NCBI GenBank assembly: GCA_012295275.1
Contig: CM022676.1
Span: 12,958,001 to 13,022,000, forward strand
Source of the DNA: Chrysomallon squamiferum
Taxonomy: Eukaryota > Animalia > Mollusca
DNA: 64,000 nucleotides
Direction: 5' to 3'
The notes under the pieces: model-generated
The model's input: the letters and a program-made list of their open reading frames with translations, nothing else
What the model was told of the DNA's origin: nothing
Databases searched by the model: none
Translations under genes and position numbers: made by a program
Shown here: positions 590 through 59,176 of the stretch, in pieces
Layout: each line of letters opens with the position of its first letter
How positions within the stretch are numbered: the stretch's first letter is position 1

Positions 590-677
590 AGCGCTATAGA
601 AACGTGACACAATAAGTTAACCTAGATAGACGACACTCGTGTACCCGCAAGAAACAAGTTTAGTCACAACATTCACA
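590..677 (+). promoter_or_regulatory. Conserved promoter/5'UTR cassette preceding leader exons
   Basis: GCGCT..TAACGTGACACAATAAGTTAACCTAGA..CTCGTGTACCCG(C/G)AAGAAACAAGTTTAGTCACAAC recurs at ~955, 13710, 16778, 28092, 29580, 29825, 31725 and partly 37208. Confidence 0.65.
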
Positions 678-732
678 ATGGCGCCATTGAGATATGTACT
701 AGTTTCTGTCATGATTGTTATATGTAGTACAG
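678..732 (+). CDS. Leader (signal peptide) exon A1, MAPLRYVLVSVMIVICST-G
   Basis: 55-nt ATG exon ending G|GTAAGT, hydrophobic, preceded by the conserved promoter cassette. Confidence 0.8.
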
Positions 733-53501: not shown

Positions 53502-56500
53502 TTATTTTTCACTCTTAGGTTCTGTTTGTTTGTCATCTTCATCAGGAAGTGGTTCTGCTTTCTTGTTCCAGTCAATGGAGACGTACTCCACTTTGTCCTG
53601 TGTTTTGTGAACTTGTTTACTTGGTTGTGTGTTAGAGAAATCTATACCAACATACAGCAGCCCATCTTCATCTCGTCCACACTTTGCTCCCTGAAACAAA
53701 CAAAAAAACACATAACTACTTAATATGAAACCCCGTCCCTGAAGAAATTTCTTTGAATTATAAGCCTACAGTCAGATCTCTTCATAACTTTCCTCTTTAT
53801 AGCATTTCCTCCTTTATCACCTCAAAAATGGCTAAGCACTGACTGTCTGTATTTAATTACACAAATGATTAACTTTTTAAAATACACACACATGTAACAT
53901 TTTTTTAAACACACACAAACCTAATTTTTTTAAAGTATAATTTTTTGTTTTAAATTAATTTTTTTTTTCTGAAAAATACAAAATTAACTCTTTTTTATTT
54001 AATACACACAAATTTAACTTTTTTAAAAACACTAATTTATCTATTTATTAAATAAATACAATTTAACATTATCCAAATTCACACAAATTCAGAGCAAATA
54101 TTTATACATTTCTTTAAGAAAAATCAAGGCAATGTTAATAAAGAGATTTGATTGTCAATGTGTCTCAACACTGGAATACATTGATTTTTGGACAGGTTTT
54201 GTTTCTAATTTTTTCTTCTTTTTTCTCTCACATTATAAAGAGACTGAACTTTTTTTTTTCTTTTCTTCTTTTTTTTTTTTTTTTTTTTTTTTTTACAAAA
54301 CTTTAAATAAATTAAATCTTTTGGGATACCATTTATTTTATCTGTTTTCATTTTCTTTGCCATCAATTTCAATATTTGGAACCAATCGCAATATCAATGG
54401 CCTCAAAGTTTTGTAAGATCTTGTTAGATCTGTTTTTACTGGGCATAATATTGGTAAAAACTATTCTTTATTTACCATGGATTCAGGTGTCTATTCTATC
54501 ATTTTATTTATTTTTTAATTTAAAAAACAATATATACATATATATATATATATATAATTTTTTTTTTTATTATTGTTTCTATACATATTTAAATAAATAA
54601 ATGGTGTGCATAAATGTAGATTTATTACCTGGATATCCTGACCTGTAGCACCCTCTCCTTCAAACACTGCATTGGCATATGTAACATCATCCCTTACAGC
54701 ATCAACATTTTCATAAACATCTCCTACACAAAAGTAACATTTTAGTGAGCCAAATGGAATATGATCACTGATAAATTGATAAATGTATTGATAAATTCCA
54801 AATAACTATTTTTGAATCAGACAGTTCCCTGTTCATACCATGTTTTTATCATCAGAAATTACTATAATTATCATCAGTAAAAACTACTGAAATTAAGAGT
54901 TTCTAAGTAACTGTGTGTCATGTCATGAAATAAGTAGTAATATTAAAATATTTGTTTAAAGCCTTAAGCAATTTTCAAAATACATTTTCAAAATAAACAA
55001 CCAATAGTAATAATACTACTAATAATATTAACAACAATGGAATACTAACATGACATAAAGAATTAAATAATTTTATATCTTTTCTTTCCATAAGGATTAC
55101 TATATAAATATTTTTTCTGCATGATATTATAAATACACACACACACATATGCAGACACACACAAACAAACACACACACACACAATTTCATGCACACATAA
55201 ACATTTCTTAAAATATAAATTATCTGAATGAAACCTTTCTGTGCTTGCTTCACTTTCTTTTCAGCACCTACAGAAATAATAATAACAACAACATCAACAA
55301 CAACAACAACAGTAAAAGTATATCTAGAATATTAAATTAAATGGAATTTTGCTTAACAAAACATATTACATATTACTTAATTATTATTTAACCCAGAAGA
55401 ATGACTCTTTGAATGATAATTTGTAACAGTCTGGAAAGTTTCTCAAAAGTAATTTTTTGGTTTTAGAAAATGAAAATTGCATTTGCCATATTTGGTCTAA
55501 GTGTATAATAATACAGTATATATATTTTTTTCTTTTAACAAATAAAGATGTACAGTTAAAAAGATAGTGGAATTCATCACCAGTATCAGAATAACATAAA
55601 TGACATTCTGACTTCTCATTTAATACTAAACCATCTACCAGTTTGATGTTACTGGTTCTAAACCTACATAATGTTGTAGCATCCTTTTGTTGGCAACTTT
55701 AACAGATAATGTTCTAATTTAAATTCATCTTTAAACATTCTGTAATTAATTACTTTAGATCACTCAAGTTAATCAGGATGTTTTAGCCACAAAACATCCA
55801 CTTGGACACATGAATATGTGTTACATAAACCACATTCATCTAGTATAGCTTTCATAGAAGATAACCAAGGACTTAATACAGCATTTATACTATGGTTATA
55901 ACGATAACAACATGAATAGTACACCTGACAATTTATACTCTTTACAGTTAACAACCTTTGTCCAAAATGTAATCATTCTTACTTTAACACTTATAACATT
56001 GGGTATCTTCCTAATTCACCACAAATCATAGAGCTTGTTAACTCATAATATATATTTGCAAAACTTGAGATGAAGTCTTGAATTATATCTAAATTACTAA
56101 AAGGTGTAGTTGATGTTGTAAATCATCTGCTGTTTCTACTAACAGTACAGTATCATCAGCAAATAAAAATACAAATAATTTATGATATACATTAATATGT
56201 TTGCAAGAAAACCTGTTATTGAGTGTATCTATACTGATCTTGTTGTATTAGTCTCTAATTAGATTATGTAATACCACTTGGCAGCTGATGTATCCCTGAC
56301 ACAGAAGGTGTTGTTGATCAAGATAGTTATCGTCTGTTTATTAAACATACTTTGTTTTAGTTGCTTAATACATAGTCACCTGGCTTTTCCACTCTTTGGC
56401 ATAAGCAATGAGATCAATGGACGAATCACAGGGAGACATGTTTGTCCATGAGAAACTTTAAAGTTCAGGCAGGTAACTACATTTTTGGCACGTTGTTTAA

Positions 56501-59176
56501 CTCAGATGTGATTGTTGTGACAAGTAATATTATTTTTATTATGGTATTATTCAATTATTTTAGAGGGTGTATGGGTTTCTATCTGTGCCAAAGTAACTAA
56601 TCTCAAGTCAGTTGCTACTACCTGGGTAGGTTCCTGTGAAGGATGACATGATATCAGAAGTTACAAAGACCTATTTGATATCACTTATTAAAAGATACTG
56701 TAAATTACTTCATTACATAACCCTACTTATTCAATTTACAAACCTTTTTCTTTCTTTTTCTTTTCTTTTTCCTTTTTCTTTAACTTTAAATCTTGTTTTT
56801 CCTTCTTTTTTTTCTCATTGGCAGATTCTGTTTGGCCTTTTTTACCTGTAATTTGTGGGAGAAGTAGCATTAACTGATAAAACAGTTATCTATTTTTCTT
56901 ATTTGACAATTAAGAGATTAAACAAAGAAAGGCATATTTTTTATTAATGATGCAGTCAACAAATTTTATCTGTGAAACTAATAATTATGGTTATGGACTG
57001 CAGAAGATAAAAAAAATAAAAAATAAAAAATACAGCATGTTATGATGACCTAATAAATATTTAACATAAAGTGTGTGGAGATATTTATACTCAAAAATCT
57101 TTACAAATTTCAATTAATTTGGGTCCCTATATAATTTCATGGTTTACTAAACAATGACTAATTGATGGCATTTAGCAAAGTCAGTCAGGACATCACCGGA
57201 TGTCAACACATTTAGAACATCTAAGAAAATGTAGAGTTCAACATTAATAATACGCCTAAAGTCCCAAACAGCCCTTCAGGTTATTTACTATTATGTGTTT
57301 TTAATGTTGTTTTTATTACCTTGTTTATTCTGATTAGCTGTAGACTCACCAGTCTTTGTTTTCTTTACAACAGAATATTGACTTTCAGGATTTTCAACTA
57401 TTAACCCAGAACTTGCACTTGGCTGAGGATCAATTTGACTTGAATCATTTCCTGTTATAATAAATACAACATATTAAACAAATGTCACTCAATTAAATAT
57501 AAAAATGTCAGCAACATCAGACACTGGATTCTTTGAGCAAAGTATATTATAAATATGAAATATCTAATTTCTGAAAATATGTAATTCTTTAAACCAATAA
57601 AAGCTAAATTATTAGTATTATTATAAGTATTGTTTCATTGTGTATTGATATTTGTTCGTTTCTCTCTTTCTTTAAAAAACTGAAATGAACAATGTGTGAT
57701 AGTAAATCATAATTTTTGTACCAAATGTTGTAACAGTTAAAACAAAAAGACAAATATTCACTGATATTGTTGAGGAAGGAAATCTTGTATGAGATGTGGT
57801 GGTGAGTTGGTATCCTTTATTATAACAATTATTATTATTATTATTATTATTATTATTATTATTATTATTATTATTGTTATTATTGTTGTTGTTGTTTTTT
57901 TGTGTTACATCTTAAAATTACTAAAATAATACACCAGACGTCAAAATTAGACTGGAAAATACAGCAGAAATAGATAACTGATAGTTGATGGATGGATAGA
58001 TAATGATGGGTAGACATTAAAATTCACTCTTTTTTAAGAGTTAAACAAAGAGGAAATCATATTCATTATCATATTTCAACTTATTTGTATACAGCATTGT
58101 TTTAATATGAATATGGCTGAAAGTAAATGTACATATTTTTAACAGTAACAATAATTGATGAGCTGTATATACAGTAAGAAAACAATTTTGACTTTTTATA
58201 TTATTATATACTCTCAGAAAAAAATATTTATTTTACTTTTATTTTATTTTTATTTTATTTTTTTATTTTAATAAATAAACTAATACATACCTGATTGTCT
58301 TGATTTACTTAAACTGTTATCTTTTGATGTAAAGTACAAATCATTGTCTTCCAACACTGGAGGGGAAAAAAAAAAAAGAAGGAATATCAACTATCAAGAA
58401 AAATAAAACATCATGCCAAAAAAAAATATAAATAAATAAATAAATAAAATTACTTTATTTGGACATCTAAATATTAATTATTTGGAATGATCAAAATATT
58501 ACTGATAAATTCAGAAGAGATGAATTATCTATCAATTATTTCATTATTAATATTATTACATTTCTTCTTTTCTTTGCTTTTTAAACATTTATGTCATCAG
58601 ACTTGAAATACAAATCATTTCCTCCAACACTGAAACCAAAACAAGATCAATGTTTATTTCTACTGGATTCTTGAGTTAACTATATTTCATATCCTGTTTG
58701 GAGTATTTTAGTTTTACATGATATTTTTATGAATCACACCTGGCAATACTTGACTCTTTAATCTGTCATCACGATTCATGTAGTACAACTCATTGTCTTC
58801 TAGAACTAAAAGATGAATCAGTTATTTAAGCAATAAATATATTCCATATTAACAGAGCCTGATTACAAAACATCTGAATGCAGCAATTTTATCCCTTTAC
58901 AAAGAAAGTTGTGTTGTTCTGATATATGTCACACTGATGGCTGGTATTTTTTTTCTTTATTTTGTATTTATTTATTTTATTTATCTTTTTTTTTTTCTGA
59001 CCAAAAAAGAAAATCTTAAGATCAAATCTGCTTGTCCTTCAGGTGATCACTTCACAACTGCACCGTTTTATATTTTTTCAGGGTCATTAAATTTGCATAT
59101 ATTAAGAGTTTGTTAATTTCAGTTAAAACAAAACTGATTACCTGGCAATACACATTCTGCATTACTACTTGTTTGC
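53502..59176 (-). CDS. 3' (cytoplasmic) exons of a tyrosine-motif protein, probably an ITIM-bearing receptor; 5' part not found in window
   Basis: Minus exons 59176-59142, 58805-58740, 58356-58291, 57451-57320, 55267-55235, 54723-54629, 53690-53502 splice in frame with GT-AG; motifs NELY, NDLY, SQYSVV, DVYENV, LLYVGI, VEYVSI. Confidence 0.75.
55600..56260 (-). mobile_element. LINE reverse transcriptase remnant
   Basis: Minus strand KLFVFLFADDTV at ~56145-56182 (RT catalytic motif); boundaries approximate. Confidence 0.55.

Follow-up and report, generated by a model that had tools for sequence, protein, structure and literature searches.

A candidate cluster of paired activating and inhibitory immunoglobulin receptors in the mollusc Chrysomallon squamiferum

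Background

In vertebrates, clusters of paired receptors of the immunoglobulin superfamily (IgSF) are known that act through immunoreceptor tyrosine-based motifs for activation (ITAMs) or inhibition (ITIMs); Siglec, SIRP and CEACAM1/3 are paired receptors of this superfamily. Families of receptors with ITAM or ITIM tails are also known from a cnidarian and a tunicate, whereas in molluscs only single receptors were found. Here we describe a tandem family of genes encoding immunoglobulin (Ig) and fibronectin type III (FN3) domains in Chrysomallon squamiferum, within a stretch of 64,000 nt (contig CM022676.1, positions 12,958,001 to 13,022,000) that is called the window below and to which all statements on gene copies and flanks are limited. 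Two intact genes (A and B) and a broken one (C) lie on the + strand and converge on the exons of an ITIM-bearing tail (D) on the - strand. These genes probably encode type I receptors that act as paired activating and inhibitory receptors of innate immunity.

The oyster haemocyte receptor CgIgR is reported to bind microbes, and its ITAM to recruit Syk, with activation of ERK and phagocytosis (PMC6994640). A second haemocyte receptor that binds microbes, oyster CgNCAM1 (XP_034303240.1), consists of 3 Ig domains, FN3 and a transmembrane (TM) segment and carries two ITIMs; it recruits SHIP2 and has a damping effect on cytokines (PMC11841013). Large Ig gene expansions have also been reported from molluscs. 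The 'CEACAM5' orthogroup OG0000013 counts 130 members in Gigantopelta aegis, 101 in C. squamiferum, 59 in Lottia and 103 in Bathymodiolus (PMC7895826), and in a pearl-oyster cluster of Ig-FN3-TM genes the copy number varies between haplotypes (PMC9646362).

Results

Predicted activating tails of genes A and B

Gene A (10 exons, 678-11052, + strand) and gene B (12 exons, 13803-27983, + strand) are intact, with GT-AG borders at every intron and no internal stops. The 841-residue product of gene A comprises a signal peptide, a variable-type (V) domain, five further Ig domains, FN3, a TM segment and an 86-residue tail that holds two YxxL-x8-YxxI/L ITAMs, one per exon. The 723-residue product of gene B has a V domain, four further Ig domains, an FN3 domain differing from that of gene A, a TM segment and a 77-residue tail with one x7 ITAM. 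Ig-type Pfam families were matched by 9/9 of the Ig-only exons tested and fn3 by 3/3 of the exons holding an FN3 domain, and paired cysteines are present in the Ig exons. These results agree with the initial annotation, which had proposed V-Ig/FN3 units with ITAM tails. When the spliced tails were shuffled, the observed ITAM count was reached with p = 5e-5 for gene A and p = 1.6e-3 for gene B. The window is AT-rich (24-41% GC per 2 kb), and as a control the bare ITAM consensus was counted in all six frames. It occurs 62 times, 3 times in tail exons and 59 times outside them, so that the motif carries weight only by virtue of where it lies among the exons and of its being kept in G. aegis. This conservation of the tail motifs is a stronger argument than their occurrence.

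Predicted inhibitory tail of gene D

The eight exons of gene D run convergently on the - strand from 59176 to 53502 and encode an open cytoplasmic tail of 239 residues with canonical splice sites. They are located at 59176-59142, 58805-58740, 58356-58291, 57451-57320, 56845-56744, 55267-55235, 54723-54629 and 53690-53502. A convergent - strand gene with three ITIM-consensus motifs had been expected from the initial annotation, and the three motifs are indeed present, at 57383-57366, 53660-53643 and 53591-53574 (p = 0.004 in shuffles of the spliced tail). The gene D tail is 51-58% identical to tails of G. aegis models (128/222 residues for P0030 and 113/220 for P0046), with alignment scores of 573 and 475 against shuffle maxima of 95 and 84, respectively. 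For the last exon the one protein match among 12 candidates was the tail-only G. aegis model P0028, at 74% identity. We considered and rejected an alternative ITIM tail lying 3' of either gene on the + strand, A or B, as the P0030 tail matches the - strand alone. A degenerate third copy of the 66-nt repeated tail exon of gene D is found at 58590-58630 (- strand); P0046 has three such repeats.

Opposite tails on like ectodomains in gene models of Gigantopelta aegis

The closest proteins to the window genes are those of the vent snail G. aegis, which provided 4/4 matches (from 430 candidates) to the Ig7+FN3 exon of gene A, with 59-62% identity over this exon. The ITAMs are kept in these relatives, as a repeated x8 form in P0002 and P0006 (gene A type) and as an x7 form in P0010 (gene B type). 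In two other G. aegis models the same kind of ectodomain is followed by the tail of gene D. P0030 has an Ig-Ig-Ig-FN3-TM arrangement of gene A's family and then a D-type tail with three ITIM-consensus motifs, and P0046, a partial model with two Ig domains, has a D-type tail with two such motifs behind a TM segment and an ectodomain of the gene A family. Over Ig7+FN3 the ITAM-tailed P0006 matches the ITIM-tailed P0046 at 98.1% identity; the two share 310/331 residues through the TM exon, and their tails are unrelated. Conversely, the two ITIM models P0030 and P0046 are identical at 83/94 terminal tail residues, yet only 68% identical over Ig7+FN3. The paired-receptor complex proposed in the initial annotation thus withstands its main refuting check and is supported by the G. 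aegis models, in which like ectodomains carry opposite signalling parts, and in the window itself genes A, B and C and the D tail are linked within 59 kb.

A tree of nine ectodomain rows united P0006 and P0046 with support of 100/99 and placed the window copies apart from all G. aegis copies. A first tree also included five more rows, all distant and either bivalve or unnamed; it gave long-branch warnings and was rebuilt without these five. The approximately unbiased (AU) test rejected a single clade of ITIM-tailed ectodomains (p 1.5e-46, for a group defined after the first tree was viewed). The tree, the AU test and the identity of ectodomains with opposite tails imply that exchange or homogenisation of tails and ectodomains has taken place within a species. 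Most exons, those for the TM segment included, end in phase 1, and ectodomains and tails would therefore be exchangeable by recombination or gene conversion. Signs of birth-and-death evolution and domain shuffling are also seen in the window, as a V pseudo-exon, the broken gene C and unequal Ig counts.

The ITIM module of the D-type tail, with its two tyrosines, extends beyond vent snails. Both tyrosines are kept in proteins of Haliotis, Ruditapes, Mercenaria, Mytilus and Argopecten; four of these mollusc proteins have a TM-like segment and one of them is a complete receptor of 3 Ig domains, FN3 and TM. For this comparison 10 of 15 HMMER matches were used, leaving out three that matched the N-terminus of P0028 alone and two long matches made up of multiple stretches. 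An Atlas search with the ITIM-tail protein P0028 was uninformative, with all scores <0.8 and TM-scores <0.35. Tyrosine-containing tails were also observed in distant relatives (P0011, P0012, P0019 and P0014), as YxxL-x9-YxxL in Ruditapes, an ITIM together with a motif resembling the immunoreceptor tyrosine-based switch motif in Mytilus, and a multi-tyrosine tail in Haliotis. The initial annotation had also foreseen that labels would be uninformative, and RefSeq does name the relatives hemicentin-, titin-, Dscam-, syg-2-, CD22-, L1- or CEACAM5-like, or uncharacterized.

Variation in the V domain

The structure model of the V exon (pLDDT, the predicted local distance difference test score, of 61) aligned mostly to V-type Ig folds, with Z scores of 6.4-7.7 that lie below the bar of 8 for a clear match; the best of these, from the same model, had Z 7.7 and a root-mean-square deviation of 3.2 over 97 residues. 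In Pfam the V exons likewise scored below the curated cut-off (V-set E 0.0065 for that of gene A), and Atlas neighbours of the domain include V-set clusters (0.93). Between genes A and B the V domains differ at 33/118 residues and Ig2+Ig3 at 17/176 (p 6e-5). Variable V sites are concentrated within residues 27-64, where 22/37 of them fall (p 4e-5, for a region chosen after inspection of the data). In two G. aegis members the V domains cannot be aligned with each other, and the Ig2-4 beneath them are 82% identical. In Ig2 there is no synonymous difference between genes A and B, which suggests a recent gene conversion between the two exons. In all three intact V exons (2815-3168 in gene A) an extra pair of cysteines occupies residues 57 and 70, and the F-strand cysteine is preceded by a WWC motif.

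RNA evidence

Parts of gene A were present in four RNA runs from one study and in one run of unknown kind. Three of the RNA runs and the unknown run were aligned to 550-11400, as contigs that bear no tissue label and in which alleles and paralogs are not separable. Contigs join the V exon to Ig2 in 3/3 runs and Ig2 to Ig3 (3596-4771) in 1/3, and one contig of run X2 spans Ig6 into Ig7/FN3. The TM and tail bins are covered by RNA, and seven intron bins have zero depth in all three RNA runs. The last ITAM exon of gene A is spanned by a single RNA contig with 13 differences, paralogous or allelic, which covers 10933-11051. The unknown run covers introns as DNA would, with a depth of 17-29 in contigs of unique introns and 935 for an Ig2 contig; this summed depth (run X5) is a hint of many family copies and not a copy number. 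Loose ends of RNA contigs at 4771 and 5999 indicate that other exons precede Ig3 and Ig5 in family members, so that more domain layouts exist than the window holds. Intronic positions 2247-2415 are also covered by RNA (a contig in X1, and the bin in 3/3 RNA runs), possibly as a repeat or an unmodelled exon.

Exon structure of the window genes

The exons of gene A all lie on the + strand. The leader exon encoding the signal peptide (678-732) runs from its ATG to a GT donor in phase 1, and a second intact leader exon (1045-1099), open and with a GTAAGT donor, is 71% like the first leader cassette. They are followed by the exons for the V-type domain (2813-3169), Ig2 (3336-3596, Pfam Ig_2), Ig3 (4771-5049) and Ig5 (5999-6265), the last two assigned from the spliced model and an Ig-type Pfam family. 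An Ig4 exon is absent from gene A and present in gene B and in G. aegis P0006. Further downstream are Ig6 (6432-6728, Ig-type in Pfam), the joint Ig7+FN3 exon (7598-8239, Pfam I-set and fn3), the TM exon (10275-10412), whose helix is without a charged residue, and two tail exons. The first of these (10712-10822) has its ITAM at 10747-10794 and matched the Pfam ITAM model below its cut-off, with E 0.0011; the second (10934-11052), which includes the stop, has its ITAM at 10969-11016. Read-through at the GTCATT donor of the FN3 exon would give a stop and possibly a secreted form.

Gene B begins at a leader exon at 13803-13857; a nearer one, close to 16863, no longer has its GT donor. The V exon (17373-17729) is taken from the spliced model, and Ig2 (18816-19070) and Ig3 (22480-22758) from the spliced model and Pfam. 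The exons for Ig4 (23224-23511), the Ig domain in fifth position (23884-24144) and FN3 (25072-25371) fall in the range of 47-60% identity to G. aegis P0010. The helix of the TM exon (25594-25761) includes one aspartate. ITAM adaptors carry such a residue in their TM helix. The aspartate in gene B may be incidental, as P0010 is without it. Four tail exons (26079-26112, 26471-26520, 27474-27572 and 27958-27983) complete the gene, with the ITAM that is kept in P0010 at 27500-27544. Inside gene B a duplicate V pseudo-exon (18303-18653, + strand) is frameshifted, has eight stops in the exon frame and is matched by tblastn in two frames. The single N of the window, at 22190 in an intron of gene B, may mark an assembly join between its Ig2 and Ig3 exons.

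Gene C (31815-47850, + strand) is broken and possibly represents two remnants. Its leader is at 31815, its V exon (34178-34534) is intact and its Ig2 exon is absent. These are followed by an Ig3 exon (40390-40668), a truncated Ig4 (41182), Ig5 (42315), Ig6 (42748) and an Ig7+FN3 exon (43777-44369) whose Ig7 part has a deletion that shifts the frame. A search of the + strand from 44370 to 47732 gave no TM exon. The tail exons (47439-47485 and 47733-47850) hold a degenerate motif ending in YxxF. Thus the estimate in the initial annotation of at least four paralogous + strand units, two of them intact, with canonical tails held as to the two intact genes and the presence of four V exons, but one of these V exons is a pseudo-exon, there are three tails and that of gene C is not canonical.

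A cassette of promoter and leader is present in at least eight copies (590, 971, 13711, 16778, 28091, 29584, 31741 and 37209) against four V exons; gene A has two intact alternative leaders, and several of the other copies are orphaned or dead. A DNA-transposon remnant of Tc1/mariner type (45440-46920, Pfam DDE_3) lies within the broken gene C. Stretches at 32865-33374, 21419-21883 and 61500-62700 are presumably remnants of Tc1- or pogo-like transposons as well; Pfam gave no match for the reading frame at 21419.

Discussion

We consider it probable that this tandem Ig/FN3 family, with predicted type I receptors bearing ITAM or ITIM tails, is a system of paired activating and inhibitory innate-immune receptors. 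In our analysis the gene structures and their pairing are demonstrated or strongly implied, and signalling through the tails is what we infer. Binding of a ligand, most likely microbial, by the variable N-terminal V domain would cluster the receptor, whose tail could then be phosphorylated by a Src-family kinase. ITAM members such as A and B would dock Syk or Shark and lead to ERK signalling and phagocytosis, and ITIM members such as D would dock SHP2 or SHIP via two tyrosines spaced 23 residues apart and thus dampen the response. Through exchange between tails and ectodomains, the two members of an on/off pair would continue to recognise the same ligand. Genes for SYK, Shark and PTPN11 are annotated in G. 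aegis (PMC7895826).

Several observations weigh against this interpretation. The TM segment and ectodomain of gene D are not in the window, where the - strand from 59177 to 64000 shows neither a TM-like segment nor a candidate phase-1 exon nor any tblastn match to G. aegis ectodomains, so the pairing in this genome rests on the G. aegis models, from which gene D would be a receptor of the family here too. These models are automatic predictions, partly fragmentary, and alternative splicing or mis-joining may underlie those with opposite tails. The Pfam ITAM model scored below cut-off on both tail exons of gene A and on that of gene C and did not match that of gene B, and the donor of the gene A FN3 exon at 8240 (GTCATT) is weak. 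Positive selection on the V domain was sought and not seen in pairwise ratios of nonsynonymous to synonymous substitution rates (1.10, 1.00 and 1.07), and values of 1.0-1.1 fit relaxed constraint as well as diversifying selection. The RNA evidence covers the gene A region only; among the displayed RNA joints none links FN3 to TM, TM to tail or the two tail exons (29 further joints were undisplayed). Most of the contigs differ from gene A by 1-10% and may derive from other copies; they therefore speak for expression of the family and not specifically of gene A.

The proteins could instead be genuine ITAM/ITIM receptors for tissue-level recognition, such as clearance of damaged cells in the style of Draper and Shark, neural wiring or nephrin-like adhesion. 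Multiple Ig domains followed by one FN3 and a TM segment form a nephrin/SYG-2-like architecture, and the RefSeq labels of the matches include syg-2-like and nephrin-like. In Drosophila, ITAMs drive the engulfment of damaged cells (10.1101/2022.03.04.482883). However, the fast turnover, broken copies, variation focused on the V domain and species-specific clustering would be unlike a conserved wiring or adhesion gene, and the two oyster receptors with ITAM or ITIM tails are haemocyte receptors that bind microbes (PMC6994640, PMC11841013). We regard this explanation as rather unlikely.

It is also unlikely that gene D is an orphan or decayed tail, or an adaptor of the Gab/FRS2 type, such that the window would hold only an ITAM cluster and the pairing would be specific to G. 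aegis or an artefact of modelling. The SHP2-docking sites of such adaptors resemble the terminal tyrosine pair of gene D, the - strand beyond the tail (59177-64000) is without a TM or Ig exon, and the G. aegis models P0028 and P0031 consist of a D-type tail alone. Nevertheless, all eight exons of gene D are open and bordered by canonical splice sites, their identity to G. aegis tails is 51-58%, and a TM-like segment precedes the tail in two G. aegis models as well as in four other mollusc proteins.

A complex for allorecognition or for gamete/self-recognition, on the model of Hydractinia Alr or Botryllus fuhc, is very improbable, for although the general layout (V-Ig, more Ig, FN3, TM, ITAM or ITIM) is common to Alr and partly to FcoR as far as these are described in the accounts available, none of the 27 protein-search matches bears a Hydractinia or Botryllus name, and snails are solitary and do not fuse. 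Of the two roles suggested in the initial annotation, innate immunity is better supported than allorecognition.

If the paired-receptor interpretation is correct, the on/off receptor design extends to spiralian protostomes, and the large Ig expansion of molluscs that is hidden under hemicentin, CEACAM5, Dscam and NCAM labels would be explained. Matched activating and inhibitory pairs might also reveal why paired receptors evolve, as a response to pathogen decoys or for self-tolerance, in animals without lymphocytes or the major histocompatibility complex, and possibly how symbionts are controlled. More tentatively, a molluscan paired-receptor system could be older than the split between snails and bivalves, with ITIM and ITAM tails repeatedly re-attached to homogenised ectodomains whose V domains can be swapped; in vent snails about a hundred such genes might balance tolerance against digestion of bacterial symbionts. 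Four 'CEACAM5-like' genes are reported among those high in the G. aegis oesophageal gland, and these are not mapped to the window family.

Comparison with known receptor systems

Full-text searches with thin coverage of subscription journals returned no paper that describes a mollusc family of paired ITAM/ITIM receptors. The available parts of a 2025 review of invertebrate IgSF proteins name the oyster ITAM receptor as the sole mollusc case (PMC11999971). The available text on Biomphalaria PTC clusters makes no mention of ITAMs or ITIMs, so it offers no tie to the window family (PMC10875847); the family is not described in what was available of PMC7736800, nor was anything relevant to it contained in the corresponding text of PMC12943528. 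A mollusc family of paired Ig receptors that have ITAMs of their own, share a conserved ITIM module and exchange their tails is apparently undescribed. CgIgR and CgNCAM1 are likened to the window genes by architecture alone, and in the accounts available they are described singly and not as a paired, clustered family. In the same way, the mollusc Ig expansions were counted without tail motifs or pairing in the portions available of both reports (PMC7895826, PMC9646362). The label of one relative (P0007) suggests that OG0000013 is the family of the window genes.

Alr proteins of Hydractinia have a V-type Ig domain, further Ig domains, an FN3-like region, a TM segment and ITAM or ITIM tails, and their genes are clustered, as in the window (10.1101/2022.03.04.482883). 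The window proteins have more Ig domains and keep the paired cysteines that are lacking in domains 2 and 3 of Alr, and near-identical ectodomains with opposite tails do not appear in the available account of that system (10.1101/2022.03.04.482883). The fester co-receptors (FcoR) of Botryllus are likewise described as type I proteins led by a V-type Ig domain, with ITIM or activating motifs that are swapped between forms (PMC12065747). According to the same account, however, FcoR proteins include hemITAMs as well as a sushi domain, and their motifs are swapped through alternative splicing, whereas the window genes have full ITAMs and no sushi domain, and their ITIM exons are on the strand opposite to that of genes A and B.

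The paired on/off principle itself is shared with the vertebrate IgSF receptors FcR, KIR, LILR, CHIR and XFL, as presented in the text available (PMC2413239). Activating receptors of the FcR/KIR type use an adaptor via a charged TM residue, whereas the predicted activating members of the window own one or two ITAMs; the short tail and basic TM residue of that type are not seen here, the TM helix of gene A being uncharged and that of gene B having an aspartate. The ectodomains in the window are also long (5-7 Ig domains and FN3) and show no orthology to those of vertebrate paired receptors, and the likeness between the two systems is probably convergent.

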